Origin: an uncultured Pseudomonadales bacterium
GTDB taxonomy: Bacteria; Patescibacteriota; Microgenomatia; UBA1400; PJMF01
Length of the DNA: 64,000 bases
Direction: 5' to 3'
NCBI GenBank assembly: GCA_964393205.1
Contig: CAYMSV010000002.1
Span: forward strand, 160,843 to 224,842
Positions 32,127 to 64,000 of this stretch are shown piece by piece (within the stretch, counting starts at the first letter, position 1; every line of letters starts with the position of its first letter). The position numbers and the translations under genes were made by a program. The notes under the pieces are model-generated. The model was not told the origin of the DNA and did no database searches. It saw only the letters and a list, made by a program, of their open reading frames with translations.

Positions 32127-32149
32127 TATATAAATAAAATAATAAAATT

Positions 32150-32539: not shown

Positions 32540-32541
32540 CT

Positions 32542-32967: not shown

Positions 32968-32991
32968 AATTAACAAATTAAAAAAATAAAT

Positions 32992-33333: not shown

Positions 33334-33403
33334 ATTTTTTTGCTAAAGACTAATAAACTTGATATAATAAAAATTAGATAGAAAAATTTAAAAGGAGACT
33401 TTT

Positions 33404-33808
33404 ATGAAATTAACTAAAAAAATTGCTCTGGCTAGCGGCAGCGCTTTCAGCGGGATTCTTCTTCAAGCCAAAATGGTGATGGCAGCTTTCGATGACATTG
33501 AGGTTAATCCAGGCACGGGCTATGCTACAGATTTTGGCAAAATGTTTAGTTCTATTTTAAACGTAGTAATGCTAATTGCTGCTGTTTTAGTTTTTGCTTA
33601 TCTTATCTTTGGAGGCATCCAGTGGATTACCTCTGGAGGAGATAAAGGAAAAGCTGAAGAAGCACGCAATAAAATTACAGCCGCCATTATTGGATTAATT
33701 ATTGTAGCGGCTTCCTATGCAGTAATTAACTTAATTGTGAACTTCTTGGGCTTTGGTAGCTTTAATGAAGTTTTTCAAAATGTAGGTACCATTAATAAAC
33801 CTAATTAA
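33404..33808 (+). CDS. VirB2/TrbC-like pilin candidate, paralog 6
   Basis: Strong SD AAGGAG 8 nt upstream. 'IQWITSGGDKGKAEEARNKI'. Confidence 0.55.
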   Translation: MKLTKKIALASGSAFSGILLQAKMVMAAFDDIEVNPGTGYATDFGKMFSSILNVVMLIAAVLVFAYLIFGGIQWITSGGDKGKAEEARNKITAAIIGLIIVAASYAVINLIVNFLGFGSFNEVFQNVGTINKPN

Positions 33809-33840
33809 TTTTAGATACTAAAAACTCTCTTTTCATTTGC

Positions 33841-34266
33841 TTGGAAAGAGAGTTTTTTATTGCTATAATCAGAATTATTATGATTCAAATCTTTTCGTTT
33901 TTTTCCATTGTTAAACCTGTTCAAGCACAGACTAAAAGCTGGGATCAAATAAATGACAATTGTGTTATAGAAGGAGTAGCAAGTATTCAGGGTATTGGTT
34001 GCTTGCTAGCCAACATTCTTTCTGTGGTTTTAACTTTAATTGGTATAGCGGGATTTGTGATGATTATTTATGCGGCTTTTAATTTATTATTATCAGCTGG
34101 AAAAAGCCAAGAGGTAGAAAAATCTAAAAACACTATTACTTTTGCTATTATTGGTTTAATTTTAGCTCTATCTGCTTTCATAATTATTAATCTCATTTCT
34201 AGCTTTACAGGCATTGATTTTATTAAGTCTTTTGTTATTCCAGGATCACAAAAAGACTGGTTCTAA
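33841..34266 (+). CDS. VirB2/TrbC-like pilin candidate, paralog 7
   Basis: Signal peptide '...VQA|QTK'. Two TM helices with the loop 'SAGKSQEVEKSKNT'. Confidence 0.45.
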   Translation: MEREFFIAIIRIIMIQIFSFFSIVKPVQAQTKSWDQINDNCVIEGVASIQGIGCLLANILSVVLTLIGIAGFVMIIYAAFNLLLSAGKSQEVEKSKNTITFAIIGLILALSAFIIINLISSFTGIDFIKSFVIPGSQKDWF

Positions 34267-48330: not shown

Positions 48331-50526
48331 TTATTTTGGAGCTTGGTAGTCGTCAATTGAATAAGCAAAATGTTGTTTATTGTTTGATTCTTCAGCCCGT
48401 GTATTTTCTGCTTGGTCGGAATTTTTGTTTTGATTTTCAATGTTTGTGTTTTGAGGTTTTTGTTGTTTATAATTTTCACCATCAAATATATTTTTAATCT
48501 GAGGCAATACCGGGTTTTGTTTTAACTTATTTTCTGCTTTTTGTTTTGCATTTTCTAAAACATCTTTTGTAAAATCAAGTTTTTCTCCTTGCCAAGGAAT
48601 TTTGTTTGGTTTATCAAAAGAGCCAACTTTTTCTTTTTGAGCTTCTGTTGACGAGCTTTGTTCAAGTCTTTGACGACGCAATTCTCTTTCAGCATTAGCT
48701 TGTTTTTTTTGACTTAAAATTTCTTCTGGATCAGTGGTAATTACTTGATGTTCTTTGTCAGAAGCAATTACTCGCAGCGCCACATGATTTTGTCCAGCAA
48801 AAAAGATTCCTTCACCAACATCTGATGTGACTAAAAGTTGTCTTTCACCTTCAGATAGATAAAAAGTTTGGGCTAAAAGGGGGACTGAAGATGTGGATTG
48901 TTTCATCAAAAATTGAATGGAAGAGTTCGAAACAATGGCTCGTCCATAGTCGTTACGTAAAAAGTCTTCAACGTCTTGGGTGATAGTAGTAATTCCCAAA
49001 TAATATTTACGTGCTCTTTTAACCATTGAATAAACAAAAGCTGAGCTATCTTGATGCATCATAAAATACCAGGCTTCATCAATAACCAAAATACGCCTTT
49101 TAAGATCTTTTTTAATTTTTGTCCAGATAAAATCAAGAATTACATACATTGCAATTGGTCTTAATTCTTCTTCCATTTCTTTAACACTGAATACGGTAAA
49201 AGGTGACTTAATATCTATGTTAGAAGCTTTGTCAAAAATACCACGAAAAGAACCGGTAATAAATTTTTCTAAGCGAGCAGCTAAATCAGCGCTTTCATCT
49301 TGTTCCATGCCAATTAAGGCTTTATAAAGATCTTCCATTAACGGAGGAGTGTTGGTTTGAGTATTTGGGTCTGGGGTTATGCCTTTAGCCTTATAACTAG
49401 CGACAATAGCACGATCTAATATAGCCTCTTGTTGAGGAGTCATTTCACCCAACATTACTTTTAACAAACCATGAAGTGAAAGAATTTTTTGTCCCAGTTC
49501 GTTTTCGCCCTCTTCATACAAATTAGATAGGTCAAAGGGGTTAATTTTAGCTTTCGAGCCGAAAGTAAAATTAATATATTCTCCATCAACCATTTTGCAG
49601 AGTTCTTCATATTCGTGTTCTGGATCTAAAACAATGATTTCTGTGTCAAACATTAGTTGTCGCAAAATTTCTAGCTTGACTGTATAAGATTTACCAGCTC
49701 CAGATTTAGCAAAAATAACCATGTTAGCGTTTTCCATCTTAAAGCGATCAAATATTACCAGAGAATCGTTATGTTCATTAATTCCATAAACAATGCCTGT
49801 TTCCATAGTTAATTCTGAGGAAGTAAAAGGAAAAGTTGTAGCTAAAGAGGTGGTATCCATGTTTCTGGTAACGAGTAGCCGGTCTACACCCATAGGAATG
49901 GTCGTTTTAAAGCCTTCGTCCATTTGTAGAGCTGATTTCTTAGAGACGATTAATAAAGACCCTAGGGCAGACTGAATGGCCTTGGTGGTTTTTTCCAATT
50001 GTTCTCTGCTTTCGCTCTTAATAGTGACATATAAACTAAACTGAAAAAATCTTTCTGATCCAGCAGCAAGTTGCTCACGCATCACTCGAGCGTCATTTAG
50101 TTTAATTTCGGTATTAATATTACTAATTTTACCCGCTCTAACATCAGAGGTAATTTCCGCCTCCATTTCAGTAATTTTTCTTTTTAAATTATCTAAAATT
50201 TCACTAGTATCAGAGGGAAAAATAAACATCGAGATATTGGCTTGGGTGGGAAAGTTAATTAGTGGGGATAGCCAGTTAGCGGGAACACTTCTAGGATAGC
50301 CAGCTACGAAGAGAGTTCTTGTGTAGGTGGAATTAATTTTTTGATAGGTAAAATCAACTTCAATTGCCTCTGGAGCAATAATATCTTGAATGGTAACAAG
50401 ACCTCGGGAAAAATCTCTCAATTTTTCTTGGGTATATTGTTCTGCATCGATCTGTTTTTGCTCCACAGGATCAGCGTTGGTTTTTTTCTTATTAATAAAT
50501 GGTAGGTTAAAATCTAAAATTGACAT
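48331..50526 (-). CDS. type IV secretion system ATPase VirB4/TrbE/TraE family (monoderm-type)
   Basis: Walker A 'VIFAKSGAGKSYTVK'. Walker B 'RILVIDEAWYFM'. The N-terminal region 'YTRTLFVAGYPRSVPANWLSPLIN' is typical of Gram-positive-type VirB4. 731 aa. Confidence 0.85.
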   Translation of the reverse strand: MSILDFNLPFINKKKTNADPVEQKQIDAEQYTQEKLRDFSRGLVTIQDIIAPEAIEVDFTYQKINSTYTRTLFVAGYPRSVPANWLSPLINFPTQANISMFIFPSDTSEILDNLKRKITEMEAEITSDVRAGKISNINTEIKLNDARVMREQLAAGSERFFQFSLYVTIKSESREQLEKTTKAIQSALGSLLIVSKKSALQMDEGFKTTIPMGVDRLLVTRNMDTTSLATTFPFTSSELTMETGIVYGINEHNDSLVIFDRFKMENANMVIFAKSGAGKSYTVKLEILRQLMFDTEIIVLDPEHEYEELCKMVDGEYINFTFGSKAKINPFDLSNLYEEGENELGQKILSLHGLLKVMLGEMTPQQEAILDRAIVASYKAKGITPDPNTQTNTPPLMEDLYKALIGMEQDESADLAARLEKFITGSFRGIFDKASNIDIKSPFTVFSVKEMEEELRPIAMYVILDFIWTKIKKDLKRRILVIDEAWYFMMHQDSSAFVYSMVKRARKYYLGITTITQDVEDFLRNDYGRAIVSNSSIQFLMKQSTSSVPLLAQTFYLSEGERQLLVTSDVGEGIFFAGQNHVALRVIASDKEHQVITTDPEEILSQKKQANAERELRRQRLEQSSSTEAQKEKVGSFDKPNKIPWQGEKLDFTKDVLENAKQKAENKLKQNPVLPQIKNIFDGENYKQQKPQNTNIENQNKNSDQAENTRAEESNNKQHFAYSIDDYQAPK

Positions 50527-51650
50527 TAAAGTTCCACTGGACCCGGTTCATTTTTATTTAATATTTGATTGGTTGAGTTTGGTGGCATTGTTTTTTGATT
50601 TAAAGTGTTGTCTTGGGTATTTAAATCTGTTTTTTTGGTTTCATCATTTGCTTGTAAACTCTGTTCTTGCTCGGGATTCGTTGTTTGTAAATGAACAATT
50701 TCTTCGCTAAAGTTTGGTGAAGGGTTTATTTGTAATTTTAAATCCGCTATTTTGTTTAAATCTTGAGAAACAAATTGAGTTTTTTTATTTGGCTCTTGAT
50801 TACTTGTTTGATTTTTTTTTGAGATCTCTTCATCAACAGTTATTGATTGAGGTGTTTTAGTTAAAGTGGGAGTTTCGCTTGGTTCAATATTTAGCTCTGG
50901 TGCGGGTGTTGGTGCTGGTGCTGGTGCCTGATTAACGACTTGATCCATTTCGTTAAAATTTTGATTACTTGTCAAACTAGCTCTAACCATAGGAGTCGTA
51001 TAACTCTCGCTATTGGTAACTTCTTGACCTTCTGTCGACTCTGGATTGTAATTGATGTAAAAATTTTGAATAATTTCTTGAGTGTCTAGTTGTCTAGCAA
51101 ACAAGCCAATTCTATTAAATTGAGCAATTAAATGATCTCTACGAGGATCTAATATTGTAGAGGCTTTTTCAATTAGAATGGTTTTTTCAAAATTATTAAT
51201 ATTAAATTTAGTTTTACCAGGTAAAACACTTTCCGCAGTATAAAGACCCATTTCTCCAGCATTGGTAGGAATAACTACAAAAAATTTTTTTTCTAAAACA
51301 TTTCTCTCACGAATTAGATTGGCCACGAATTCTCGGTATTCTTCAATTAATTTAGCTTTTTCTCTAGATTTGGCTTGTTTTGCTTGGTTTTCAAGTAGTC
51401 TTAGATATCTTGTTGCATCTTTAATATTAGACTGAATGTTAATTTGAATGGGAAAGTTAAGAGAATTAAGCAGGGCACCATAGGTATACATAATGGCGTC
51501 TTGTTCTTGCTCTGCTAACAGACTAAAGTTCATGGTGCCTATTTGCATAATGATGGATATTACACCATCTTTAAGAATTACCATGTCGTTGGTAATATCA
51601 TAAACATCAAGAAACTCTTGTGTGGTAGAACTAATAGTGTTGTCGCTCAT
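50526..51650 (-). CDS. T4SS-associated protein; N-terminal ~150 aa resemble the non-ATPase N-domain of VirB4/TrbE; Q/P/T-rich tail
   Basis: 'FLDVYDITNDMVILKDGVISIIMQIGTMNFSLLAEQEQDAIMYTYGALLNSLNFPIQINIQSN'. TAATG overlap with VirB4 suggests translational coupling. Confidence 0.4.
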   Translation of the reverse strand: MSDNTISSTTQEFLDVYDITNDMVILKDGVISIIMQIGTMNFSLLAEQEQDAIMYTYGALLNSLNFPIQINIQSNIKDATRYLRLLENQAKQAKSREKAKLIEEYREFVANLIRERNVLEKKFFVVIPTNAGEMGLYTAESVLPGKTKFNINNFEKTILIEKASTILDPRRDHLIAQFNRIGLFARQLDTQEIIQNFYINYNPESTEGQEVTNSESYTTPMVRASLTSNQNFNEMDQVVNQAPAPAPTPAPELNIEPSETPTLTKTPQSITVDEEISKKNQTSNQEPNKKTQFVSQDLNKIADLKLQINPSPNFSEEIVHLQTTNPEQEQSLQANDETKKTDLNTQDNTLNQKTMPPNSTNQILNKNEPGPVEL

Positions 51651-51704
51651 GAGTCTTGTTTAAGTTTACTAGATTTTGACCCTTAGTAAAAGAGTCTTAA
51701 TTTT

Positions 51705-52658
51705 CTAATCAGCAATAATTTCTATTGTTGGTACTAATTTTCCAGTCAATCTAATGCTTAGTGGGGTAAATATTAAATCCTCTGCTTCGGTTTTAATTAA
51801 ATATTCTCCGTTAGGGAGTGCTGTTTTAATATAAAATTGACCAGCAGTATTAGTTTTAATGATGCGTAAAGCTTGGTTCTGATCGGCAGCAAATACTTCG
51901 ATCAAAGCGTTTTTAACTCCTTGACCACTTGTATTCTTTACCAAGCCAACTAATTGATTAGCTTGTTGTGCTTCTAATTTATTATTACCTTCGTTTTTAT
52001 TTTCTGAAGTGACTGGTTCTTTGTTCGCTTCCACTGTGTTTTGTAAGTTGTCTTGTGCATTTTTTTCCCGAACTTCTTCTAAATTTTTTAGTTTACGAAT
52101 TCTTGTTTTTAATTGTGGTTTGTTTCTTTCTTGTTCTGGTTTAACGGAAATATTTTCAGCTCTAACTTTAACCTGATCATAGTTGGCAATAAGATCTTGA
52201 GTTTTTTGTTTGTAATGATAGTCCCAGTCATCAAGTTCTTCATCATTTTCTGGAATACTCTTTAAATATTCTTGAATGCGTTTTTTTCTAGCAGGTGAAT
52301 AATTAACCTCTGGATTAACTTCAAGATTTTGATTTAATCCTGGTTTATAGTTAAAGAAATCAGGAACCTTTGGAGTTCTTTTCCAAAAAAATTTAGTAGG
52401 TTTCCAAAGATTTTTAAAAAAAGTGACGATCCAAAAATCAAGAGGTCTCTCTTCTATGGGGACGAAGGCAATCATAATTGACAATAAAACTATAAAAATA
52501 AATAAAGGCCATCTAACTACGCCAATTAGATTACTTTTATAAACAATAAAAGCAATGAGTGCTCCAACTGCTAGTTCGGCAAATTGTTTAAGGGTCATGC
52601 TACCGATTAGATGGAATTTATAACCAGTGATGTCTTGAGGAATTGGGTGTTGTTTCAT
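51705..52658 (-). CDS. VirB3-like two-TM protein fused to a C-terminal prealbumin-like (CarboxypepD_reg-like) beta-sandwich domain
   Basis: Two N-terminal TM helices ('LAVGALIAFIVY', 'WPLFIFIVLLSIMIAFV') precede VirB4, as in Gram-positive T4SS. The C-terminal segment 'GVKNALIEVFAADQNQ...TNTAGQFYIKTALPNGEYLIKTEAEDLIF' is prealbumin-like. Confidence 0.4.
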   Translation of the reverse strand: MKQHPIPQDITGYKFHLIGSMTLKQFAELAVGALIAFIVYKSNLIGVVRWPLFIFIVLLSIMIAFVPIEERPLDFWIVTFFKNLWKPTKFFWKRTPKVPDFFNYKPGLNQNLEVNPEVNYSPARKKRIQEYLKSIPENDEELDDWDYHYKQKTQDLIANYDQVKVRAENISVKPEQERNKPQLKTRIRKLKNLEEVREKNAQDNLQNTVEANKEPVTSENKNEGNNKLEAQQANQLVGLVKNTSGQGVKNALIEVFAADQNQALRIIKTNTAGQFYIKTALPNGEYLIKTEAEDLIFTPLSIRLTGKLVPTIEIIAD

Positions 52659-53062
52659 AAGGACAGTTTGTTTGACTGATATTCAAAGCGCTCGCTTTTA
52701 ATATCACCAAAACCTTTTTCATTTAACCATATTTCTAGTGCTTTTTCTGTAGCGCTTAAACCGAGGTCTGATTTAATTATAAAGCCACCAGTTTTATATG
52801 AATACTGAATGTTGAAGTCGGGTGTGGTAACAGGAGTAATGTTTTTTAGTTCAGTTATTAGGCGTAATTGTTCTTCTTCATTTTCACTCAACATTGCTTC
52901 ATCAACGGGAAAAGCGTCTCTAAGAATTATTTCTTCTGGTTCTTTTGTTGGTGGGGGAGTTGGCACGATTACTTCCTCTGCTCTTTGTTTTGCAAACAAA
53001 ATAATTAATAAGATTATTATAAATAAAGTAATAATAAAAATGATTCTGATCTTTTTTTTCAT
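52655..53062 (-). CDS. small N-terminally anchored extracytoplasmic protein (T4SS operon)
   Basis: 135 aa. TM helix 'IIFIITLFIIILLIILF' plus a PTPPPT linker. ATGA overlap with the downstream gene. Confidence 0.35.
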   Translation of the reverse strand: MKKKIRIIFIITLFIIILLIILFAKQRAEEVIVPTPPPTKEPEEIILRDAFPVDEAMLSENEEEQLRLITELKNITPVTTPDFNIQYSYKTGGFIIKSDLGLSATEKALEIWLNEKGFGDIKSERFEYQSNKLSL

Positions 53063-53064
53063 AA

Positions 53065-56000
53065 TTAATTTTTTATTAAATATAGATGTCTAATATAGCT
53101 GTTGTCGGTACCCGAAGTTAAGCCTTCTCCAGAAGTAGACACAACTTTGTGGGTAACATTTTCTCCCCACCAAGGATCATAAGCTGTTAGATAGCCAGGC
53201 TCTTCAACACAGGTAATAACATAATAGTGGCCAAATCCACGAGTGTGGGTGAGAGCAAATAAAAGATTGCCTTCCGCCAAATAATTGGCCAATTCGTCAG
53301 TAATTTGACCAGGGCTGCCAGTGGGTGTAGGTACGGCGGTCGCGCTGACTCCATTATTACTTAGGGTGCTAATAAGGGGGGACAAGGCTGTACCGGCACA
53401 GCTAGTGGCACCACAGCCTCCTGGTACCAAATAACCTTCTCTAGTAGACATTGTTATTGGATCTTCATTGAGGATCATGGCAATGCTGACTGGTCCACAG
53501 GAAGAAGAACCAAAACTACAACCGCCATTACAAATCATAATATTGTTATAGGCTTTTTGGCTATAATAGGTGAGGTTGCCAACGACAACATCGTTACAAA
53601 AAACTGCACTGCCTCCACCACCAAGGCTTCCGCCGGTAGGAAATTGAGTTAAAAAAGCGCTGTTTAGAGTAGTCTGATAAATAAGCATGCTTCCGGCCGC
53701 TAAGCCAAAAGCGGTAAGTACTGCTTGACCAGCGGTAACCATAGCTCCAGAGCCAACTTCAGCTAAGCTAGCTCTAGCTCCAGTTAATTGAGTGCCTCTT
53801 GCTTGTATTTCGCTAGCAGAAACTCTATTTGCTAATTGACCAGCTTCTGAACTCAAGGGTTGAGTAATAGAGTTAGAAGCTTCAGCTTCTAGCGCACTAG
53901 ATAAAATATTGTTTTTTGCAAAAACACCTGTCCCTGTATTGCCAGAAAACAAATTTTTAAAAAAAGATGCAGCTTGTATTCCTAATTTTATGAGAATGCC
54001 TAAAAGTGTGCCTAAAAAAGCAAGTATTGCTAATATGCTTGCAGCTAAAATTTTTAAGAGAGGCTCCAATTTCTTTTTTATTTCACCCCAAGCTATTTTT
54101 TCAATCATTTGCTTGATTGGCTCGGGCAAAGTTTCAAAAGCTCCACCGGTAACATAATCTAACCCAGCTCGAACAGCTTTTTCTCCTAAAAAATCAATTC
54201 CTTTGTTGGCGAGATTTTTTATGCTTTCAAAACCCTCTTTAAGTTGAGATTCAACGGCACCTTCTTCATTAAATTGTCTGACAAAAGGGTATTGTCCATT
54301 CTCGTCTGGACCAAAAGCCTGATTATAATTAATAGCTCCTAAATCATAAGCAGAAAATTGGGGTAGGCTGCTTGATTGCAAATATATATTTTCAACTAAA
54401 AATTCTTCTCGTGGGAGATAGTAGTGTAGGGTGGCTGTTTGTGCCCTAGTCCCACTAATATTAATAACGTCAAGAAAAGTTTGTTGATAAACTAGTCTTA
54501 ATTGTCTGAGTTTTTGATTTTGTTCATCACTAAAAGCATTAAAATTAATCTGATTTTGAGGAAGACCAGCCAAGGTTTTAGTAACGACATCTGCATCGAT
54601 AACATTTAATTGAGATTGTTGTTTGAGTTGTTGAAAATATATGGTTTGTTTTTGTATCGATTTTTTGTCCTTGCTGACAAGCACATCTTCTGCTTCAATT
54701 TTTTCAATATCTTCTGGGCTGTAAATTTCATTAGCAATACCCTCATGAATAGATTGACTCCATTCCGCTCTTTGTGTGCGCCAATAACTAGCAAGCAAAT
54801 CTTTAATGGCTTGTTCGTTAGCTAAAAAAGTATTTTGACTGATAAATTCTTGGCCAAAATGAGCTTGAAAGCGTTGCCAATCAAAACGCTCAATATAATC
54901 GACGGGATAATTTTGTTGAATAAAGGTATCTATGATTGGCAGAATATTTTCTTGTGCAAAGAAAGATTTTTCCAGTCCTCTTTTGTCATCAGCGACAATT
55001 TTTTGCCATTCACTAAGAAAACTCTTTTTGGTAACCCTAGTAAAGCTTTTTCTTATATTTTTTAAAAAATCTTTTTTAAAATCTGCTTGAGAGTCTAATT
55101 TCTTAAAAAATAGCTCAGCCTCTTCACTAGATAAGTTCTGTAGTTGTTCTTGAAGTTCGGGTGGTAAATCTGTAGCATTGATATTTAGTTTTTGGGCTAA
55201 TTGTTCTTGAGTTAAAGCTTGATCTTGATTTTTTTCTAATTGGGCTTGAATTTCTGTTTTATCTTTGTCACTGCTAGTTAAGCTACCGAGTTCTGTGGCA
55301 AAAAGTTGCCCACCCCTGATATCAGTCATTACTTTCAGCGCTACATCTTTGGAAAAGCTGATTCTTTGGGATGGATTATTAATTAAATCTTCTAAATCAT
55401 AGCGGCCACTAGTAAAAAGATTTTCAATTTTACTAAAGCTAATTCCCAATAATTGTTGTCTAGTTTCTAGCGATAGTTGATTAAAATTAGGAATTTGCTC
55501 AAAACCCATTTCTGTCAGTTGTTCTTTCGAGAGATTGGCAAATTGAATTTGTAAGGATTGATTAATGGAAATAATAGCTAAAGAGCGAATATAAAGTTTA
55601 GAGCGATCATCGAGGCGAGCTAAATTAAATTCACTAGAAAAATCTTCGGGAAGGTTTTGTTTGATTTTTTCAGTTTTTTGTTCTTTGTCGGTGTCGTCTC
55701 CGTATTCTTCTGAAGTTTGTTGAGAACTGATGGGTTGTTTTTTATCTTGCGTAGAAGAAGTGGGAGTCTTTTTATCAATTTCCTCTTGAGAATCTTTGGT
55801 TTTTAAATTATCTTCTTGTTGTTGCTCAATGATCTTAATCATTGGTTGAGCTAAATCGGTATTAACTTTTTGCCATAGAGAGAAAGTTTGTTCCAATTTA
55901 CTTAATTCTTTGAGCAAGATTTGATCAGAACCAGGTTTGCTAGCTAGGCCGATGCGGTTAAAAAAATCTCTACCGAGTTTTGCCAAGGCTTGCTTGCCGT

Positions 56001-56412
56001 CCTGATCAATAAATTTAGCTAGTTGAAGGTTGCTTTGTTCTAAAAAAGCAATAAGGTCGCTCAAAAAAAGACTGTTTTGTAAAATTTGATCTTTTTGTCT
56101 ATTTAATTCATCAATAATCTTTTTTTTCTGTTCAGAGTTTATTGCTTTATCTTGAGTGACATCGGCTATTAGTTTTAATTGGGTTTCAATTTTGCTTGCT
56201 TTTTGTAACCTAAAAGTTTTTCCACTAAAACCCCTGACTAAAAATGGCAAATTAAAGCTTTTGCCAAACTTTTGAGGAAGATCTTGATTAAAGAAGTTTC
56301 CACAAAAAGAGATGATGATTTTTAATTCATCAAAGTTAAGATTGTTTTGACTAGCTAGCTGTTTGAGTTCAATACGCAAACTACCATGGTCTTGATCAGC
56401 CATAACACTCAT
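53065..56412 (-). CDS. large bitopic protein: ~860-aa cytoplasmic Q/E-rich domain, TM, extracytoplasmic C39-like papain-fold cysteine peptidase domain (candidate cell-wall hydrolase of the T4SS)
   Basis: TM helix 'ILAASILAILAFLGTLLGILIKL'. Cys motif 'CGPVSIAMILNE' and His motif 'GFGHYYVITCVEE', as in C39/C39-like peptidases. Confidence 0.5.
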   Translation of the reverse strand: MSVMADQDHGSLRIELKQLASQNNLNFDELKIIISFCGNFFNQDLPQKFGKSFNLPFLVRGFSGKTFRLQKASKIETQLKLIADVTQDKAINSEQKKKIIDELNRQKDQILQNSLFLSDLIAFLEQSNLQLAKFIDQDGKQALAKLGRDFFNRIGLASKPGSDQILLKELSKLEQTFSLWQKVNTDLAQPMIKIIEQQQEDNLKTKDSQEEIDKKTPTSSTQDKKQPISSQQTSEEYGDDTDKEQKTEKIKQNLPEDFSSEFNLARLDDRSKLYIRSLAIISINQSLQIQFANLSKEQLTEMGFEQIPNFNQLSLETRQQLLGISFSKIENLFTSGRYDLEDLINNPSQRISFSKDVALKVMTDIRGGQLFATELGSLTSSDKDKTEIQAQLEKNQDQALTQEQLAQKLNINATDLPPELQEQLQNLSSEEAELFFKKLDSQADFKKDFLKNIRKSFTRVTKKSFLSEWQKIVADDKRGLEKSFFAQENILPIIDTFIQQNYPVDYIERFDWQRFQAHFGQEFISQNTFLANEQAIKDLLASYWRTQRAEWSQSIHEGIANEIYSPEDIEKIEAEDVLVSKDKKSIQKQTIYFQQLKQQSQLNVIDADVVTKTLAGLPQNQINFNAFSDEQNQKLRQLRLVYQQTFLDVINISGTRAQTATLHYYLPREEFLVENIYLQSSSLPQFSAYDLGAINYNQAFGPDENGQYPFVRQFNEEGAVESQLKEGFESIKNLANKGIDFLGEKAVRAGLDYVTGGAFETLPEPIKQMIEKIAWGEIKKKLEPLLKILAASILAILAFLGTLLGILIKLGIQAASFFKNLFSGNTGTGVFAKNNILSSALEAEASNSITQPLSSEAGQLANRVSASEIQARGTQLTGARASLAEVGSGAMVTAGQAVLTAFGLAAGSMLIYQTTLNSAFLTQFPTGGSLGGGGSAVFCNDVVVGNLTYYSQKAYNNIMICNGGCSFGSSSCGPVSIAMILNEDPITMSTREGYLVPGGCGATSCAGTALSPLISTLSNNGVSATAVPTPTGSPGQITDELANYLAEGNLLFALTHTRGFGHYYVITCVEEPGYLTAYDPWWGENVTHKVVSTSGEGLTSGTDNSYIRHLYLIKN

Positions 56413-56478
56413 TATAGACAGAAATTTAGTCAGTGACTAGGCAAAAAAAAATAAAAATAGTATAATTTAACCATCAAC

Positions 56479-58725
56479 ATGAACATAAATAGTGAGTTTT
56501 CACCTAAGAAGGGTTTTTTTAGAGAAGTAGATAAAGGTGGGGGTGGTGGTGGTGGTGGTGGTGGAGGTAAAGATGATGAGGGTGAATCTAGTAGCAACAA
56601 CGAACAAGAAGATGCTAAAGGAGCAACAATGAAAACAGAAAAAGAAATCTTAGACAATGTTTTACCAATTCTAGGAGCTGACATCAAAAAAACAGCTCAG
56701 TTAATTGACGACCTTGAAGCTGAAGCAGCCATTGAGGTGCTAGAGCAATCTCGAGACTTAGCTATGTGGTATAAAACTTCTTCTCCTAAAGAAACAGCAG
56801 CATTAGCTTTTCTTAAAAAAAAGTTAGAAGAAAAAGCTGCAGAATTAGGTTATTCTTTTGAAGATGAATTGGAAGAAAGCGAGGGGAGTGTAGGGGGTGC
56901 AGAAAGTGTAGAGAGTGCAGAAGATGGAGAGAGACCTTCTTGGCAAACAAAGTTTGATCGTTTATGGGACGAGTTGCAAGATACCTATAGGGAGAGAGCT
57001 AGTTCTAATCCAGACATTCGTGATTTAACTTCACAACTCACTGAAATTGTTGAAGAACATTTTTCTGAAGAAGAAAAGAGGGCTTATAGAAGAACTCTAT
57101 TAATGAGAGATGTAGCTAACCCCAATGCAGTCTTTAGGCATTTGTGTACTGAAACACCTGAGGAAGCTCGAAAAAAATCTTATCTTAATGAAGCTCATGA
57201 ATTAAGAAAATATATGGATTTAGAAAATGTTTTTGGAGTGTCCATAAAAGAAATCGTTGACTATTTAGAAACAGATGCTTTTGATAATATTGAGCATAAA
57301 ATAACGAGGGGAGACGGAAGTATTGGTGTATTTCATTGGGATTATGCTGCTAATGGTGATCCGGAAGAAGAGCTTTATGCTCCAAGAGAAGATGATGGAA
57401 CTATTGATTTTTCGGGTTTTCCAAATGAAGGAGACGTGATTCCTGATGAGGAGTGGAAGGGGAAAAAGGCCCTAACTCTTCAAGAGTTGATTGAAAATAA
57501 ATTTCCAAAATTAAAAGAAATTCCTAAGTTTGTTTCCGATTCTTTAATAACCTTTGTTATAGTTTCTGAGCTTAGGTATCATAAATTTTATCCATATTAC
57601 AACTATTATCAAAACTCTCCTATTAATGGTATGGATGCCGGTGCTCTTTTACCCTGGGGTATACCAGGCTATTTGGGCTATAAGGCTGCTTCGATTCAAA
57701 AAATTCCTGGATATAGCTCGATTTTGATGTTAACGAGACATCCTAATGAAGAAAAGTTAAAAGAAGTTAATGACTTTGAAGGTACTGACGAGGAGATTGA
57801 AGATTCTATAAATGCCGAATACAGGACTATAAATTTTGAAGAGGACTGGGCGAGAGGGCGCTTTATTTTTAAGAAAAATGACAATGGCGTTGTTGAAAGA
57901 AATCATGGCAGACGTATTAGGGAACACGAATATGTTGAAAATCGTAATGAAAGTTTTGAAGGTGATAGTTTATATGATAAGACATCAAAAAAAAAGAGAT
58001 TTGATAAGGCTCTAGAGAACAGAGAAATAATGGTTATGGTGAGAAATGCTCTTTGCTGGATGTTTTCTCCAGACGTAGATTTTGGTTCGGTTACTCTTAA
58101 TCCTGACATGCAATTGCTACCCAGCCCTTGGAATGTGATTAAGGGTAAATGGAGAGGTGAGTCTATTAACATTACCTTAGATGATCTTTTTGAAGTTTAC
58201 GATCAATTTAATAAATTTGCTGAAGAAATAGATAACGTCCCAAGCATAACTCAGCCAATGCAGGCAATGACTCTACTCTCAGATTTAATAAGCAATACTT
58301 CTAGGTTTAAGGTTATCTTTGGTAAATTAAATAAACCCGTTTTTCAAGAATTATATGATCTCGTTGGATTAATGTATATGTTTTATCTTAAGAAATTATT
58401 TGATCAATATATGAAATTGCCAAAAATGAAGGGTTTGTCTTATGCTACAACCCCAAAACACATGGTTTTTGCTCAAGAGGTAATACATGAGGTAGAATTT
58501 GACAGAACTCTGCCGCCGTTTATCAAAGAAACCATTGTGAAAGCCATGAATCAATTAGGCGTTGTCGCAGATGGAAAATGGGGAGTTATATTCTCTCCAC
58601 CAACTGCGGAAGATGAAACCCCTCTATTTATTAGATTTCAGCAGCTCGTTGGTTCTGGTTTTGCTCAAAATTTAAATCGTTGGCTTAAACCGGCTAGACC
58701 TGAAGAAAAAGATCCAAATCAATAA
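56479..58725 (+). CDS. hypothetical acidic cytoplasmic protein with Gly11 run (embedded antisense in the T4SS-like locus)
   Basis: 748 aa, D/E-rich, no TM helix. It has the Gly run 'GGGGGGGGGGG'. No known motif. Confidence 0.45.
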   Translation: MNINSEFSPKKGFFREVDKGGGGGGGGGGGKDDEGESSSNNEQEDAKGATMKTEKEILDNVLPILGADIKKTAQLIDDLEAEAAIEVLEQSRDLAMWYKTSSPKETAALAFLKKKLEEKAAELGYSFEDELEESEGSVGGAESVESAEDGERPSWQTKFDRLWDELQDTYRERASSNPDIRDLTSQLTEIVEEHFSEEEKRAYRRTLLMRDVANPNAVFRHLCTETPEEARKKSYLNEAHELRKYMDLENVFGVSIKEIVDYLETDAFDNIEHKITRGDGSIGVFHWDYAANGDPEEELYAPREDDGTIDFSGFPNEGDVIPDEEWKGKKALTLQELIENKFPKLKEIPKFVSDSLITFVIVSELRYHKFYPYYNYYQNSPINGMDAGALLPWGIPGYLGYKAASIQKIPGYSSILMLTRHPNEEKLKEVNDFEGTDEEIEDSINAEYRTINFEEDWARGRFIFKKNDNGVVERNHGRRIREHEYVENRNESFEGDSLYDKTSKKKRFDKALENREIMVMVRNALCWMFSPDVDFGSVTLNPDMQLLPSPWNVIKGKWRGESINITLDDLFEVYDQFNKFAEEIDNVPSITQPMQAMTLLSDLISNTSRFKVIFGKLNKPVFQELYDLVGLMYMFYLKKLFDQYMKLPKMKGLSYATTPKHMVFAQEVIHEVEFDRTLPPFIKETIVKAMNQLGVVADGKWGVIFSPPTAEDETPLFIRFQQLVGSGFAQNLNRWLKPARPEEKDPNQ
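56539..56568 (+). repeat. (GGT)n trinucleotide microsatellite, ~10 units, in-frame (poly-Gly)
   Basis: ggtgggggtggtggtggtggtggtggaggt. Confidence 0.8.
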
Positions 58726-58780
58726 AAAAGATAGCAAAATGGAATGGGGTGTTTTAAAAATTTTAAAAAAACTAAAATTA

Positions 58781-60523
58781 TTATTTTTTGTTTTTACCAA
58801 GTACTCTGTTCATTAAATCAATAGAATCCTCAACTTCTTGTTTATGTGTGGCTCTTTCTCTATTTTTTCCAGTCGCAAATCCTTTACCAATTGAGAGTTT
58901 TCCTGGTTCTCCCCCCGGAGTCGTAGGTTTAGTTTTAATTGGTAATTCACCAGTATCAATAAAATGAGTTACTGGGTTGAGTATGTCTGGTTGGTTAAGT
59001 CCCGCAGAGTGTTCTACATTAATTGCTGTATTTACTCCAGTATGAGCTCCTTGTTTCACACCGGTGCCAAATCCTTGTATAATACCTTTGCCAATTGATC
59101 CAAAACCGCCTGATACATCTCCCATTCTCATTTGACCAATAGCTTTAGGTATGTTTTTAAATCCTCCGCCAATTGCGCCAATTGGTCCTCCAGCAAGGGC
59201 GCCAGTTGCACCAAGTCCAACTCTACCACCTAACGGAAAGGCTTTTTTAGTTCTTTCTATGGCCGCTCCTGCTAAGCTACCCATAATTCCTTCTTCCACT
59301 CCAAGTTTCTTTTTTGCCTCTTTCATAATTTCCGGAATAGTTAATAAAATGCCGATGGCTACCAAAGCTGGAAAAGCAGCTCCCTGTCCTTGTCCTAATA
59401 GAAATGGTGGCATAAAACCACCAACCTGTGTTCCTGTGCCAACATATTTGCCAGTTGTGAGCATACTATTAACTAGCAAGCAAATCAAAACTAGTGGCCA
59501 CATAATTAAATTGCCAGTTAGATTTTTTAACCAAGACACGAAGGTATTTTTTCCTGGAATAGCGCCGACCATTAATATGACTGGTGCAAAGACTATTTGC
59601 AAAATAATTGCAATATAAGACTTCAATAGTTCAAAAAAGATTTTAAAACTACTAAATAAAATCGCTAAACCAATGATGACGATGGCAGATAGGGAAGACA
59701 ACCAAGCAACAGCGGTAGATAGCCAACCAGTGCCCAACAAACCGCTTATTAAATTTCGCAGGGTGTTTCTAACATCATTGCCAAAATTATCAAACATCCT
59801 GCCAATCAGGTTAAAAATATTACCTGTAATTAAAGTGGTTTCGCCCCCAATTAAGGTAGTTAACATGTACATTAATAAGTACATTAGATCAATCAAAAAA
59901 CCAGCTATCGCATAGGAAAAAGTGACAGCCAACATTGCTACAATGATGCTGGGAATTGCTTGTTGAACTGTGATTGCAGCTTGACCAATTTTAGCTCTAA
60001 ACATAATCATAAAACCAATTATCAAAAAAATAACTACAAAAAATAAATAGGCAACATTGCGAAAATTTTTCCAAGTTTCAAGAATAGGGTCTAGTGCAGC
60101 AAAACCAAGTCCTTGTGCCTGGGCTTGGGGCATAATTTTAGCGTTTTGTAAAACGTCAGCTACGTAAGTTACTGAACTTGCGGGAGGGTCATACATAGCA
60201 ACAATGCCGCTGTTTACAACACTGATTAGTCCAGAACCAACAGCCTCATTAAACATGCTGGTTTCACCATCCATTTCTTCACCTCCACCCATAATATGGA
60301 GGTTAATAACGTTAAGTAGGTTGGAGGTAGTTTCTGTAACATGTTTTTCACCACTAACTCCCTCTTCAACTAAACTTGAAGCCATATTGGTAGTTGCTTC
60401 TTTAGCACTAAATTGAGTTTTTAGCCAATCCCAAACACTAGCTTGAGCTGGTTTAGTTACTAGAGACCAGGTTAAGAAAAAAGTAATGATAAATATAACA
60501 AATCGAGAAATAGCTTTTCTCAT
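58781..60523 (-). CDS. VirB6/TrbL-like polytopic membrane protein with Gly-rich C-terminal tail
   Basis: Signal peptide '...KPAQA|SV', a ~140-aa extracytoplasmic domain, at least 6 TM helices, and a Gly-rich tail 'GGPIGAIGGGF'. This is the VirB6 topology. Confidence 0.5.
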   Translation of the reverse strand: MRKAISRFVIFIITFFLTWSLVTKPAQASVWDWLKTQFSAKEATTNMASSLVEEGVSGEKHVTETTSNLLNVINLHIMGGGEEMDGETSMFNEAVGSGLISVVNSGIVAMYDPPASSVTYVADVLQNAKIMPQAQAQGLGFAALDPILETWKNFRNVAYLFFVVIFLIIGFMIMFRAKIGQAAITVQQAIPSIIVAMLAVTFSYAIAGFLIDLMYLLMYMLTTLIGGETTLITGNIFNLIGRMFDNFGNDVRNTLRNLISGLLGTGWLSTAVAWLSSLSAIVIIGLAILFSSFKIFFELLKSYIAIILQIVFAPVILMVGAIPGKNTFVSWLKNLTGNLIMWPLVLICLLVNSMLTTGKYVGTGTQVGGFMPPFLLGQGQGAAFPALVAIGILLTIPEIMKEAKKKLGVEEGIMGSLAGAAIERTKKAFPLGGRVGLGATGALAGGPIGAIGGGFKNIPKAIGQMRMGDVSGGFGSIGKGIIQGFGTGVKQGAHTGVNTAINVEHSAGLNQPDILNPVTHFIDTGELPIKTKPTTPGGEPGKLSIGKGFATGKNRERATHKQEVEDSIDLMNRVLGKNKK

Positions 60524-60616
60524 ACAAGGTATATTTTAATTGATTGTGACGCCATGTGTAAAGTGAAGTTTTTTTGCGCTTGACAATCTATCAAAGAATA
60601 TTTAACAATATCAAAG

Positions 60617-61501
60617 ATGATCGATCAAAACCAAATAGTTCGTTTATTAGAGTTTTTCTCTACGAGCGAAAGAATATTTTTTTTATTTTCTAACAGTCAA
60701 CAAAGGGATTTGTCTTTAAGCGCTTTAGCCAGTCATTTATTTTTTGAGGATTTAATTTCATTAAATAAATCAAAATTAAAACTAAAAGAAACAGTTGTTT
60801 TTTCTCCAAGTAAACTGACAGAGTCATTTAAGCAGTGGCCAGAAATTAATAACTATTTAAAACAAAATAATTTATTAGAAAAAATTCAACATGATTTGGG
60901 CAGAGAAAATTTATCAATTGTTTTTCCTTATAAAAAAAACCAAGTAGATAAAGTTTCTTATCATATTGATGACAAGGCCAAGCGCTTCTATTTAAGTATT
61001 AAACCTAAAAAAGGTGTTGCTCCATTAAGTCAAAAAGAAGTGGAATTTTCTTATACTGGTTCTAGTGCTGACTTATTAATTTTATTTGGAGTTAATGATT
61101 TAGAAGACCTCAAAGAATTATATTTTGCTCATGAAGAACTTTATCAAAACACCTCTTTAGTAACAGTTAACACTTTTTTACCAGACTTTGGTACTCTTAA
61201 TTTAGATATTAGTGGAAGCATTGGCTATGGCGAAGCAACTTTTTATTTATTAAAAAGCCTGACCAATTTCTTAGATATCGAATTAAGCTCTTTTACTCAT
61301 ATTGAGCAAATTACTACTTTGTTGTTGACGGGTATTAGTTTGAAGACAGATCAATTTAGCAGTAAACAAATGACGGCCAATAGCTTTTTAGCAGTAGCTG
61401 AATTATTGCAATTAGGCGCTCAGCGCTTAGAACTCAATAAGAACGAGATTACTAAACATAAACAGAAAAAATCTACAGCACACAAAAAATCAAAAAAGTA
61501 A
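60617..61501 (+). CDS. hypothetical cytoplasmic protein with basic C-terminus
   Basis: 294 aa, no TM helix. It ends 'KHKQKKSTAHKKSKK'. Confidence 0.35.
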   Translation: MIDQNQIVRLLEFFSTSERIFFLFSNSQQRDLSLSALASHLFFEDLISLNKSKLKLKETVVFSPSKLTESFKQWPEINNYLKQNNLLEKIQHDLGRENLSIVFPYKKNQVDKVSYHIDDKAKRFYLSIKPKKGVAPLSQKEVEFSYTGSSADLLILFGVNDLEDLKELYFAHEELYQNTSLVTVNTFLPDFGTLNLDISGSIGYGEATFYLLKSLTNFLDIELSSFTHIEQITTLLLTGISLKTDQFSSKQMTANSFLAVAELLQLGAQRLELNKNEITKHKQKKSTAHKKSKK

Positions 61502-61517
61502 AAAAATCCAAGTTTAA

Positions 61518-64000
61518 CTATTGGTTATACATAATAATAGCAGTAGTTAAGACTCCGAGCCTTTGGAAAAGTGGATATTTATTGGTGTTTCCATTAGTGT
61601 CTGTAGCATTACAGACAGTTCCTCCGCCGTCTTTAAAGCAAAGTCTAATCGCTCTCTCTACAAAATCATCAGTAGGGTAGCGACCCATAACGTCAAAATA
61701 GCGATTTCTAATTTTTTCGGCATCGTCTGTATTAGATGGTCGATTACAGGTAAATTCAACTGTATCCATGCAAAAAATTAAATCCATTTCTTGATGTCTA
61801 TCATCGATCCAGTTAACTGGATAAATATGGTCATCTCCTTCCATACTAACTGGACAATATCCAGCCAAACGCCAACGAGTTGGTCTTTCTTGGCCAGTAT
61901 AATCTGAGGTGCAGTTGCCATTACCGGGGCCGTTATAGCGGGCCAAACCCATTAACAAGGTTTCATAATCCAATTGCACCTGTTCTGGTGGTAAGCCGTT
62001 CATACCCATTTTATCTTTTAAGTGTTCCATGGCGATAGTAGCATCTTCCAATAAACTACCGCGCAGAGGACCGCCATCCAATAGTGATTGATCTGGACTC
62101 ATACCACCCTCCATCCAGTGAATTCCCGCAGCAATTTCGCAAGGTATGCCTGTAGTAGCTTCTACTTGCCCATAGACGTCTATTAACTCTGAAGTAACTT
62201 TTGGAACAACATATGCGCTGAAGTCGTTTAAAGCAATTTCTGGTATTTCTTCATAATTGGGTAGTCCTTCAACTTTGCTAAAAGCTAAACCCTCGCAAGT
62301 TGCCTCTAGTTTTCCTTGAGCTCCTTTACAGCGACCTAAAAATAAATCTTCAACTCGCTCACAGGATGCTACATATTCATAGGCATCATCGGCAGTACTG
62401 CGAATAGTTGTTTGTATTTTTCTAATAAACCAACCAAGACCAAAGTCAGGAAACAACAGGCCATGTTCTGGACGACCTGCTGTAGTGACGCCAAAGGCTT
62501 TATCATCACAAACTTGTATATAAACTGGATTGCCCAAGGCATCTACAGCTCCATCGGGATCTGGCTCTAAACGACAATTAGTTTGCCAGCTAAAACCGTC
62601 ACTATCGCTATAAGCCGCATTACTATTCTTAATAGTGTAATATTTAGGAATAGCTCCAGTTTTACCCTCCATATCTACCAAAACGTTATTTTTTATCAAT
62701 TGAAAAAGAGAATCTCTGTTCCAAAAAATACCCAGAGATTTATTAACATCTTTTACGTTTTCTCCAATTGGTAAAACCAAATATGCTTTAACCTGGACTT
62801 TTTCTCCAGCATCAACAATTGGATTACTTACGGTGATGTCCCAAGAGAAATTAGTTTCTGCTTCACTATCTAATCGATCTAATAACTCATTGTTAAGTGG
62901 ATTGTTTTTATAAGGATTACGAGCAGTATCATCAAAATATTTTGTAGCGGGAGTGAAAAGATCTCCAGCTTTTTCAAAATGTATATCATTGGTGTTGACA
63001 ATATCTTCTACGGTAATTTCAGTTTCTGGGTCTTCCAAATCTATAATGCTTACAGCTTCAACTGAACAAGAAGGTTCAGCGCCATTAATAATATCAATCA
63101 GAGCATTTTCTAACATATTGTCAGAGCTTCGTTCGCATTGAGGCATGCCAGCACACTGAATAGTTTTTTCTGATTCAGGCCAAGAATTTGCTTTAGCTGC
63201 TGCACCAATCAACAATTCTCTTTCCCAATTTTGATTATCAAGATCTTGAACATTTTGTGCATGATTTTGTAGAACAAGTTTAGTTAGTTCTAAACTATCT
63301 ACATTATTTAAAATTCGTGATTTATTAGTGGCGAATTCAGGAATTTTAAAGGCAATAAAGATTGGAGCATCTTTTTCATAAGATCCGCCATCTGTTTGTA
63401 AAAACTTTAATTTATTATTAACAGGAGTTTGTTTGGGTACGAGTACCAAAAAGGCCAAACGATAAAGATTGTCTAAATCAAAACTAACTTTTTGAATTGC
63501 TGCTCGGTTGAGAGCTAAAGTTTCAGCTAGAGCTGGACTTTCTTCCTCTGGATATAAGTCTTTACAGATGGCTGAATTTCTTTCAGATCTACTAGCACCT
63601 GCCAAATCAGGCCTCATATTATCCAAACGCTCTTTGATCCCCAAGTAATCAAAATTAGCACTGGGAATTCCTAGCGAAGCATTGGCTTCGATTTCAACTT
63701 CTTTGTTTAAAAAACAGTTGATAAAAAATTTGTCGCATAATTCTCCAATGACGTCTAAATTATTTTTTTTATAAAAACATTGCCAATAAGAACTTAAAAG
63801 GCGTCCTGTTATTCCAGTAGCATTTAAATAATCATCATCGGTGAAAGCCTCTTGTAAGTTAGCGCCAAACATACCCTCAAAAGAGTCGTTTTTATCGGTA
63901 GACTCACTATCTTCCATGCCACGTAGCAGGGGGATTCTAGCGTTTTCTAAATTAAGATATTGGGGGCTGGTGCCACTAAAATATCTAAGAGTATTAGGAA
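61518..64000 (-). CDS. Cys-rich acidic protein with SLT-like lytic transglycosylase motifs (VirB1-like candidate); 5' end beyond window
   Basis: The frame stays open from the ORF-track M (63917) to the window edge. 'IAAGIHWMEGGMSP' (ES-type catalytic Glu) and 'LMGLARYNGPGNGN' (AYNAGPG-like) are about 80 aa apart, as in SLT domains. More than 25 Cys. Confidence 0.45.
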   Translation of the reverse strand, partial: PNTLRYFSGTSPQYLNLENARIPLLRGMEDSESTDKNDSFEGMFGANLQEAFTDDDYLNATGITGRLLSSYWQCFYKKNNLDVIGELCDKFFINCFLNKEVEIEANASLGIPSANFDYLGIKERLDNMRPDLAGASRSERNSAICKDLYPEEESPALAETLALNRAAIQKVSFDLDNLYRLAFLVLVPKQTPVNNKLKFLQTDGGSYEKDAPIFIAFKIPEFATNKSRILNNVDSLELTKLVLQNHAQNVQDLDNQNWERELLIGAAAKANSWPESEKTIQCAGMPQCERSSDNMLENALIDIINGAEPSCSVEAVSIIDLEDPETEITVEDIVNTNDIHFEKAGDLFTPATKYFDDTARNPYKNNPLNNELLDRLDSEAETNFSWDITVSNPIVDAGEKVQVKAYLVLPIGENVKDVNKSLGIFWNRDSLFQLIKNNVLVDMEGKTGAIPKYYTIKNSNAAYSDSDGFSWQTNCRLEPDPDGAVDALGNPVYIQVCDDKAFGVTTAGRPEHGLLFPDFGLGWFIRKIQTTIRSTADDAYEYVASCERVEDLFLGRCKGAQGKLEATCEGLAFSKVEGLPNYEEIPEIALNDFSAYVVPKVTSELIDVYGQVEATTGIPCEIAAGIHWMEGGMSPDQSLLDGGPLRGSLLEDATIAMEHLKDKMGMNGLPPEQVQLDYETLLMGLARYNGPGNGNCTSDYTGQERPTRWRLAGYCPVSMEGDDHIYPVNWIDDRHQEMDLIFCMDTVEFTCNRPSNTDDAEKIRNRYFDVMGRYPTDDFVERAIRLCFKDGGGTVCNATDTNGNTNKYPLFQRLGVLTTAIIMYNQ

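Follow-up and report, generated by a model that had tools for sequence, protein, structure and literature searches.

What would a bacterium use a type IV secretion system (T4SS)-like operon for, placed directly beside dnaA, when no relaxase or coupling protein is encoded near it? The question is raised by a 64,000-nucleotide stretch of contig CAYMSV010000002.1 (assembly GCA_964393205.1), referred to here as the window, which carries such an operon and its neighbors at positions 48331 to 64000. An initial annotation, made from the letters alone, described a minimal, monoderm-type T4SS-like locus with a C39-like fusion and two large proteins outside any T4SS architecture it recognized, and proposed a DNA-uptake or cell-cell contact apparatus. 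Our analysis shows that the locus is an instance of the known chromosomal, non-conjugative T4SS of the Patescibacteria (candidate phyla radiation, CPR). It is real but not new, and only some accessory details exceed published work. With a probability of roughly 0.78, we read it as a chromosomal, vertically inherited Patescibacteria-type T4SS that derives from monoderm conjugation machinery of the mating-pair-formation group MPF_FATA and resides in a Woesebacteria/Microgenomates-like CPR host. Its identity as a Patescibacteria-type T4SS can be held with high confidence.

Gene content and organization of the locus

Nine substantial open reading frames (ORFs) were called between positions 48331 and 64000. 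Five of these, virB4, trsD-like, prgI-like, p135 and p1115, are tightly packed and co-directional on the minus strand (48331-56412). The sequence reads as a TAATG overlap at the trsD-like/virB4 junction, an ATGA overlap at the p135/prgI-like junction, and a gap of 2 bases from p1115 to p135. Directly downstream of virB4 lie dnaA (46718..48226, minus strand; recognized from its translation and from Bac_DnaA matches on the syntenic genes), dnaN, rnpA, yidC, and jag. Altogether, the T4SS locus comprises at least 11 genes plus nine pilin-like genes.

The 731-amino-acid (aa) product of virB4 (48331..50526, minus strand) is, judged by its sequence, securely an ATPase of the CD1110/PrgJ type, related to MPF_FATA. 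It scores 388.9 bits against NCBIfam model NF045971 (conju_CD1110; cutoff, 325), matches Pfam family PF19044 (P-loop_TraG; E = 1.1e-25), and displays the Walker A motif KSGAGKS and the Walker B motif ILVIDEAW. Compared to PrgJ of pCF10, it shows 25% identity (E = 8e-41) in an alignment that starts at PrgJ residue 208, indicating that this VirB4 lacks the VirB4 N-domain of approximately 200 aa.

The adjoining gene (50526..51650, minus strand; 374 aa) encodes a TrsD/TraC-N-like protein, and its matches support a separate VirB4 N-terminal-like module. The protein hits NF041427 at an E value of 2.6e-6, which is below the cutoff, and a precomputed match to PF26593 (TraC-like) exists on the same-length product at this position in contig L012 and on homologues. 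The identity between L012 and the window is 100% from 51518, within the trsD-like gene, to 64000, after which L012 continues for 10.3 kb. The tail of the TrsD-like protein is of low complexity and rich in Pro, Gln, and Asn, and a BLASTP comparison of the protein with PrgJ was negative.

Next follows a PrgI/VirB3-like membrane protein (51705..52658, minus strand; 317 aa), which exceeds the PF12666 cutoff narrowly (27.6 bits versus 27). Hydropathy places its transmembrane (TM) segments within residues 21 to 73. Its C terminus resembles a CarboxypepD_reg-like beta-sandwich (PF13620, 25.3 bits, below cutoff), and the homologue in locus L003 matches both families. The small bitopic protein p135 (52655..53062, minus strand; 135 aa) has a hydrophobic N-terminal TM segment (residues 1 to 33) that leaves approximately 100 aa outside. 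It occurs in all syntenic loci with 54 to 78% identity and has no Pfam or NCBIfam family match. As the sole positional candidate, p135 is possibly the component in the VirB8 position.

Gene layout and profile matches hence bear out the monoderm-type T4SS-like locus adjoining dnaA that was initially described, including its co-directional operon with ATGA/TAATG overlaps, the VirB4 ATPase with Walker A/B motifs, the VirB4-N-like and VirB3-like proteins, and the small anchored protein. With the gene count given above, the description as minimal does not hold.

Synteny and inheritance

The order dnaA-virB4-trsD-prgI-p135-p1115-slot-p580-p294-p931-pilins, in which the slot is a variable position discussed below, is kept in the related loci L001, L003, and L004, and also in L009, where only the terminal pilin genes are missing. 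All loci of sufficient length display the full gene order. In two more distant contigs, L016 and L017 (841 to 865 kb; proteins 27 to 54% identical), the order from p1115 to the pilins is kept, and the dnaA-to-p135 side lies outside the stretches compared. The genes on the far flank, SpoIID-VanW-solute-binding protein-CofD, are kept in both of these contigs, and RadA is kept in L017 as well. VirB4 is 83 to 94% identical across loci, compared to 77 to 96% for DnaA. The conserved order and flanks and a VirB4 that is as conserved as DnaA fit a vertically inherited core system and not an island. A reading as a mobile element was rejected on synteny, and the comparison across related genomes that had been proposed for the locus thus found both order and flanks conserved. 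The GC content of the locus is not anomalous within the AT-rich window (0.29 to 0.39).

Neither a relaxase, a coupling protein (T4CP), nor an integrase was found in the 16-kb locus. A look beyond position 64000, defined beforehand, used the 10.3 kb of L012 past the window end and found none there either, so the absence of these genes reported in the initial annotation stands. That stretch holds, in order, two pilin-like genes, SpoIID, VanW/PG_binding_4, a solute-binding protein, CofD, a cytidylyltransferase, and RadA, with radA approximately 9 to 10 kb past the window end and roughly 7 kb beyond the last pilin-like gene. On the other side, 20 ORFs of window positions 1 to 30,000 (287 to 608 aa, including the largest) were scanned; 16 hit families of ordinary cellular proteins, four have no informative match, and a relaxase, T4CP, or integrase is not among them. 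The absence of a coupling protein can be asserted only for the locus and not for the genome, since VirD4-like T4CP genes mostly lie far from virB4 in Patescibacteria (Quinonero-Coronel 2025, Microb Genom, PMC12102498).

The closest relatives of the locus are found in Woesebacteria/Microgenomates-type metagenome-assembled genomes. Within the Patescibacteria, Woesebacteria are part of the Microgenomates group. Five of the related loci (L004, L006, L009, L010, and L011) are labeled "uncultured Pseudomonadales bacterium," a label that conflicts with their CPR-type gene content and with the Woesebacteria/Paceibacterota labels of sister sequences.

A swappable peptidase module on p1115

The largest gene of the operon, called as a single ORF (53065..56412, minus strand), encodes the 1115-aa protein p1115. 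Only 16 homologues are detectable among 5.8 billion proteins, all from assemblies of uncultured organisms. As a whole, the protein matches no Pfam family at E <= 1 and no NCBIfam family, and PF13529 is not reached directly. It consists of three parts. The N-terminal domain of approximately 780 aa (54073..56412) is homologous to part of a 1223-aa protein of L017, has no Pfam, NCBIfam, or PDB match, carries no signal peptide, and is presumed to be cytoplasmic. It is followed by a single strong TM segment at residues 781 to 818 (53959..54072; Kyte-Doolittle maximum, 2.55) with KKK on its N-terminal flank. The predicted topology is therefore likely one in which the first ~780 aa are intracellular and the last ~300 aa extracytoplasmic.

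The third part, residues 925 to 1115 (53068..53640), was recognized by transitive homology as a papain-fold domain resembling Peptidase_C39_2. With a profile built from the C-terminal 191 residues, 154 relatives were collected at E <= 1e-3 among 1.84 billion representatives, and 10 of the 10 relatives tested exceed the PF13529 gathering score across the matching region. In one relative, P0105, the C39_2-like domain is fused with a lysozyme-like SLT_3 domain. The residues Y-Y-x-Q952, C972-G, H1062, and D1079 are invariant both in the joint alignment and within the p1115 family. Together, these data support a C-terminal cysteine peptidase of the Peptidase_C39_2 type with Q952, C972, H1062, and D1079 as the candidate active site. 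The Gln/Cys/His/Asp pattern and the domain length are those of PF13529, whereas p1115 itself is not reached by the Pfam model; the initial C39-like call is thus retained through intermediates and conserved catalytic residues, but not through a direct Pfam or NCBIfam match. Among the PF13529-family members seen, none besides p1115 is fused to a T4SS-associated N-region of ~900 aa. A PDB profile similarity to CdiA/DUF4150 toxin domains, covering ~29 aa around the His-Asp motif (E = 0.003 to 0.03), was discarded as too weak.

The C-terminal module differs between genomes. In L016 (19983-22772) and L017 (18209-21880), the syntenic homologues end in Peptidase_M23 in place of the C39-like domain, as does the protein P0016. 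Nonetheless, p1115 aligns with the M23-ended 1223-aa protein of L017 over 911 columns (hhalign probability, 100; E = 5.8e-82), and the homology covers the N-terminal ~900 aa of the latter. In the Saccharibacterium Southlakia epibionticum, SEML1_0007 (~1113 aa) ends in an M15/Hedgehog-type peptidase (Wang 2023, Cell, PMC10633639). We interpret the C39, M23, and M15 domains as a clade-specific catalytic swap on a conserved T4SS-associated scaffold, with SEML1_0007 presumably homologous to p1115. Because M23 and M15 are peptidoglycan peptidases and occupy the same position, the modules would be functionally equivalent, and we infer that the C39-like domain acts as a wall peptidase.

A secreted protein with a predicted lysozyme fold

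The window ends within p931 (61518..64000, minus strand), whose first 104 residues lie beyond it. According to P0017, which is 100% identical over the window stretch, the full-length protein has 931 aa and a Sec signal peptide. The initial annotation was right in treating this protein as cut by the window end, but its 799-aa ORF with an ATG start begins at an internal Met and is an edge artifact of the 931-aa gene; an exact look-up of this ORF returned nothing. p931 is Cys-rich and conserved, with at least 58 homologues. It has no Pfam or NCBIfam match, none of 32 family members hit SLT or lysozyme models, a PDB profile search was empty, and an hhalign comparison of the family with an SLT_3-containing protein was negative.

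The AlphaFold model of p931 is mediocre overall (mean predicted local distance difference test [pLDDT] score, 65.7) and confident at residues 670 to 931. A Foldseek search with the whole chain gave no significant match. The C-terminal domain (~61521-62306, minus strand), in contrast, matches the folds of SltB1, Slt70, MltC, MltD, MltE, the Tn916-like CTn1-Orf17 hydrolase, the type III secretion system protein EtgA, and FlgJ. In the predicted structure, the p931 C terminus is a lysozyme/lytic-transglycosylase fold, at fold level only. The earlier mention of SLT-like motifs accordingly survives as a matter of fold and not of SLT or lysozyme sequence models. Within an HW(M/T)EGG motif, E735 is nearly invariant in the family, making it the candidate catalytic residue. 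The N-terminal ~670 residues have no Pfam or PDB sequence match.

Polytopic, soluble, and pilin-like components

Between the slot and p931 lie two conserved genes. The first, p580 (58781..60523, minus strand; 580 aa), encodes a polytopic protein for which hydropathy and alignment predict a cleavable signal peptide, a ~120-aa external segment, about six hydrophobic helices, and a variable Gly-rich tail. It holds the same position in all loci, with 49 to 91% identity across relatives and 49 to 54% in distant genomes. No TrbL/VirB6 match was obtained with Pfam or NCBIfam at E <= 1, the PDB profile search gave noise only, hhalign against pCF10 PrgH returned a probability of 0.9%, and tblastn gave no match in 72,556 plasmids. 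The VirB6-like label previously given to p580 is sustained by its topology and conserved position but not by sequence or profile similarity; p580 is a reasonable candidate for the VirB6 role and a putative member of that family. The second gene, p294 (60617..61501, plus strand; 294 aa), is divergent from p580 and encodes a conserved soluble protein that keeps its slot and orientation in all loci (42 to 81% identity) and has no Pfam or NCBIfam family match.

A seven-gene array of VirB2-like pilins (31243..34266, plus strand) lies 14 kb from the T4SS locus, where it had first been noticed. Of the seven ORFs, five exceed the gathering cutoff of PF18895 (T4SS_pilin) and a sixth also matches this family, all six at E <= 3.5e-5, and the mean pairwise identity of the array pilin domains is 28%. 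Two larger pilin-like genes adjoin p931 at 0.4 to 1.9 kb past the window end (L012 8400-9302, 300 aa, and 9271-9963, 230 aa, both on the plus strand) and are kept in all related loci. Their products combine an N-terminal, Cys-containing external domain with a C-terminal PF18895/VirB2-like hairpin and could be minor or tip pilins. All nine pilin-like precursors carry N-terminal extensions. Divergent from the array, an extracytoplasmic function (ECF)-type sigma factor (30638..31201, minus strand; Sigma70_r2, Sigma70_r4_2, and Sigma70_ECF matches) may regulate it.

A hypervariable slot protein

In between p1115 and p580, the window encodes p748 (56479..58725, plus strand; 748 aa), an acidic protein without TM segment or signal peptide. 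It has no Pfam or NCBIfam match and only seven homologues among the 5.8 billion proteins. In the syntenic loci, this slot always holds a large, acidic, soluble protein of 729 to 1301 aa in the same orientation, and no Pfam domain was found in any allele. The alleles, all on the minus strand of their contigs, are located at L004 7550-9952, L009 7721-9940, L011 6036-9938, L001 7342-9936, L007 706-3315, L003 6485-9967, L016 15542-17812, and L017 15425-18103.

Homologue comparison shows that the slot evolves differently from its surroundings. In L004, p748 retains 63% identity versus 76 to 96% for its neighbors, and in the other loci it is undetectable while the neighbors stay at 54 to 87%. All-against-all BLASTP and hhalign reveal that the shared part is limited to the first ~60 to 130 residues; hhalign aligns only residues 3 to 116 (probability, 99; E = 3.5e-18). 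This N-terminal module of ~115 aa carries the motif FSPxxGFF...GGGG..KDDE, which occurs once per locus, whereas the bodies of the proteins are unrelated or diverged beyond recognition between genomes. The AlphaFold2 model of p748 (mean pLDDT, 46.6; predicted TM-score [pTM], 0.30) is too poor for a fold search.

A conserved N-module joined to a body that diverges fast or is replaced is what would be expected if a host-facing cargo carried a docking or secretion module. On this hypothesis, the N-module would dock to the ~780-aa cytoplasmic domain of p1115, or to VirB4 and the TrsD-like protein, and the body, acting on the host, would diversify along with that host. That the slot gene indeed encodes a translocated T4SS substrate or a host-specificity factor is a speculative proposal, to which we assign rather low odds. 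If true, it would make the cargo question of an essential, relaxase-less T4SS directly testable.

Proposed function and alternative explanations

By analogy with Saccharibacteria and from the domain content, we moderately favor a function as a VirB4-powered channel with a VirB2-type pilus that serves host contact or translocation and not conjugation. In such an apparatus, the membrane channel would be formed by p580, in the VirB6-like role, together with p135, and energized by VirB4 and its TrsD-like and PrgI-like partners. An opening made by the two hydrolases in peptidoglycan of the cell itself or of the host would let the channel and the pilus cross the wall. Contact with a host cell and translocation to or from it could then follow, with protein export likelier than DNA transfer. 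In S. epibionticum, the genes SEML1_0006 to SEML1_0019, which contain no recognizable coupling protein or relaxase, are essential for epibiotic growth according to transposon sequencing (PMC10633639). A 2025 review counts the Patescibacteria T4SS among the most interesting recent T4SS additions, noting that it has pili despite a monoderm envelope and that its cargo is not known (PMC12857230).

Several points weigh against this reading. The placement of the C39-like domain outside the cell depends on one strong TM segment and the positive-inside rule, and a weaker, conserved hydrophobic helix at p1115 residues 888 to 912 would, if membrane-spanning, invert this topology. In addition, wall hydrolysis is not established for C39-like peptidases. 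Sequence comparison does not back p580 in the VirB6 role, and no VirB8-like component was recognized in the locus by Pfam and NCBIfam scans. Moreover, for a Microgenomates-type organism both essentiality and a non-conjugative role are carried over from a single Saccharibacterium, and a T4CP gene could lie in another part of the genome.

The same evidence bears on what else the locus might be. The conservation of gene order and of both housekeeping flanks (each where reached) across genomes that differ by up to ~60% in protein, a VirB4 conserved like DnaA, and an unremarkable GC content make it highly improbable that we are looking at the mating-pair-formation module of an integrated or degraded integrative and conjugative element (ICE) whose relaxase and T4CP lie elsewhere. 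Such an origin would suit the membership of VirB4 in the CD1110/PrgJ conjugative family, its MPF_FATA descent, and the frequent distance between T4CP homologues and virB4 in Patescibacteria; yet relaxases occur in only 103 Patescibacteria genomes (PMC12102498), and no integrase, relaxase, or T4CP turned up in the 16 kb, the 10.3 kb beyond, or the 20 ORFs of window positions 1 to 30,000. A DNA-import machine resembling Helicobacter pylori ComB or archaeal Ced, used for competence or to supply a cell auxotrophic for nucleotides, stands a slim chance. Like ComB, the locus has neither relaxase nor T4CP, and radA, which together with comF and recG lies near T4SS loci of class ABY1 (PMC12102498), is found ~9 to 10 kb beyond the window. 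VirB4 also matches CedB, but this weak score (E = 1.6e-14; 53.5 bits, with the cutoff at 700) reflects generic P-loop similarity, and no DNA-binding or DNA-processing protein was recognized in the locus by Pfam and NCBIfam scans. Furthermore, in S. epibionticum, deletion of comEC abolishes competence but not viability, while the T4SS is essential independently of ComEC competence, for which the review credits type IV pili too (PMC12857230). Of the two functions first proposed for the locus, the non-conjugative contact apparatus fits the published work, and uptake is disfavored by this Saccharibacteria genetics.

A further alternative concerns the C39-like domain alone, which might process pilins or secreted substrates instead of the wall, comparable to C39 leader peptidases or TraF-type pilin maturation. 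C39 peptidases classically cleave leader peptides, the N-terminal extensions of the nine pilin-like precursors are in keeping with such a role, and the sole PDB similarities of the domain are to papain-fold toxin domains and not to wall hydrolases. The presence of M23 in sister genomes and of an M15-like domain in S. epibionticum at the same position, both peptidoglycan peptidases, together with the union of a related domain with lysozyme-like SLT_3 in P0105, renders a processing role unlikely and favors the wall-peptidase reading.

A probable replication origin and other features of the window

DnaA-box-like 9-mers occur as a pair in each of the two spacers flanking dnaA, at 46625 and 46648 (spacer 46350-46717) and at 48291 and 48303 (spacer 48227-48330). 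Over the whole window, they are no more frequent than chance predicts (24 observed versus 18 +/- 4 expected), and only their clustering in the two spacers is suggestive. The cumulative GC skew has its minimum at ~44 to 46 kb of the window. Probably, oriC lies next to dnaA, with the end of the T4SS operon ~100 bp away from it. With oriC in this position, the virB4-to-p1115 operon would run head-on to replication, and its location would give the genes a high dosage.

Outside the locus, a few features of the window are worth recording. The sole tRNA in the 64 kb is a tRNA-Ile with a TAT (UAU) anticodon (18085-18161, plus strand), a reading of AUA that is uncommon in bacteria. An ATP-dependent DNA ligase of the archaeal/eukaryotic type with all three domains (24479-26305, minus strand) adjoins a Fic/DOC protein with a DeoR-type helix-turn-helix (26369-27481, minus strand). 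Three consecutive ORFs of 343, 344, and 300 aa at 14961-18043 (plus strand) show no informative Pfam match apart from one sub-threshold PT-repeat, and the highest GC content of the window (0.388, at 16 to 18 kb) overlaps this stretch. Upstream of the jag-yidC-rnpA-dnaN-dnaA block, a 1015-aa membrane-anchored DUF4012 protein (39447-42494, minus strand) is encoded between L25-like (38512-39234) and RNase H-like (42472-42900) genes.

Comparison with known systems

The window offers a clean Microgenomates-type example and no new system. What it adds are readings of accessory genes, namely, a swappable C39-like/M23/M15 module, a secreted protein with a predicted lysozyme fold, and a hypervariable protein as a candidate cargo or specificity factor, which provide leads for how ultra-small bacteria attach to and exploit hosts. 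The initial impression that the C39-like fusion and two of the large proteins fall outside any recognized T4SS architecture is not upheld, as the large proteins are conserved in related loci and have counterparts in SEML1_0007 and SEML1_0006.

The survey of Quinonero-Coronel 2025 (PMC12102498) describes a Patescibacteria VirB4 clade that is sister to MPF_FATA, abundant TrsD and PrgI genes adjoining virB4, PF18895 pilins in arrays with an average identity of 25%, and frequent placement by dnaA, dnaN, rnpA, and rpmH, notably in Microgenomatia. Our locus agrees with it in the MPF_FATA-related VirB4, the TrsD/PrgI neighbors, the divergent PF18895 array (28% here versus 25%), the absence of relaxase and T4CP genes around virB4, and a location next to dnaA, dnaN, rnpA, and rpmH. 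VirB6 and VirB1 homologues are scarce in Microgenomatia according to the same survey. Unlike there, where the large accessory genes remain unannotated, a C39_2-like domain, a lysozyme-fold protein, and the slot gene are described here.

The T4SS of S. epibionticum ML1 is similar in its location near dnaA and in its set of VirB4, TrsD-like, PrgI, large polytopic VirB6-like protein, and pilin array, again without relaxase or T4CP. It also encodes SEML1_0007, of ~1113 aa with a C-terminal wall peptidase, and the lysozyme-domain protein SEML1_0006. However, the gene order is different, the peptidase is M15/Hedgehog-like where ours is C39-like, lysozyme and cysteine-proteinase domains are located on one 643-aa protein, and an NTF2-like (VirB8-like) gene is present of which no counterpart was recognized here.

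The Prg/Pcf system of pCF10 from Enterococcus faecalis shares the CD1110-family VirB4, a PrgI-family protein encoded directly upstream of virB4, and a large operon-encoded wall hydrolase, which in pCF10 is PrgK with its lysozyme and peptidase domains. It differs in having the coupling protein PcfC, the relaxase PcfG, and the adhesins PrgB and PrgC, and no pilins. In contrast to pCF10, the locus described here has no T4CP or relaxase, is chromosomal, encodes the VirB4 N-domain in a separate gene, splits the predicted hydrolase activities over two large proteins, and brings nine pilin-like genes.

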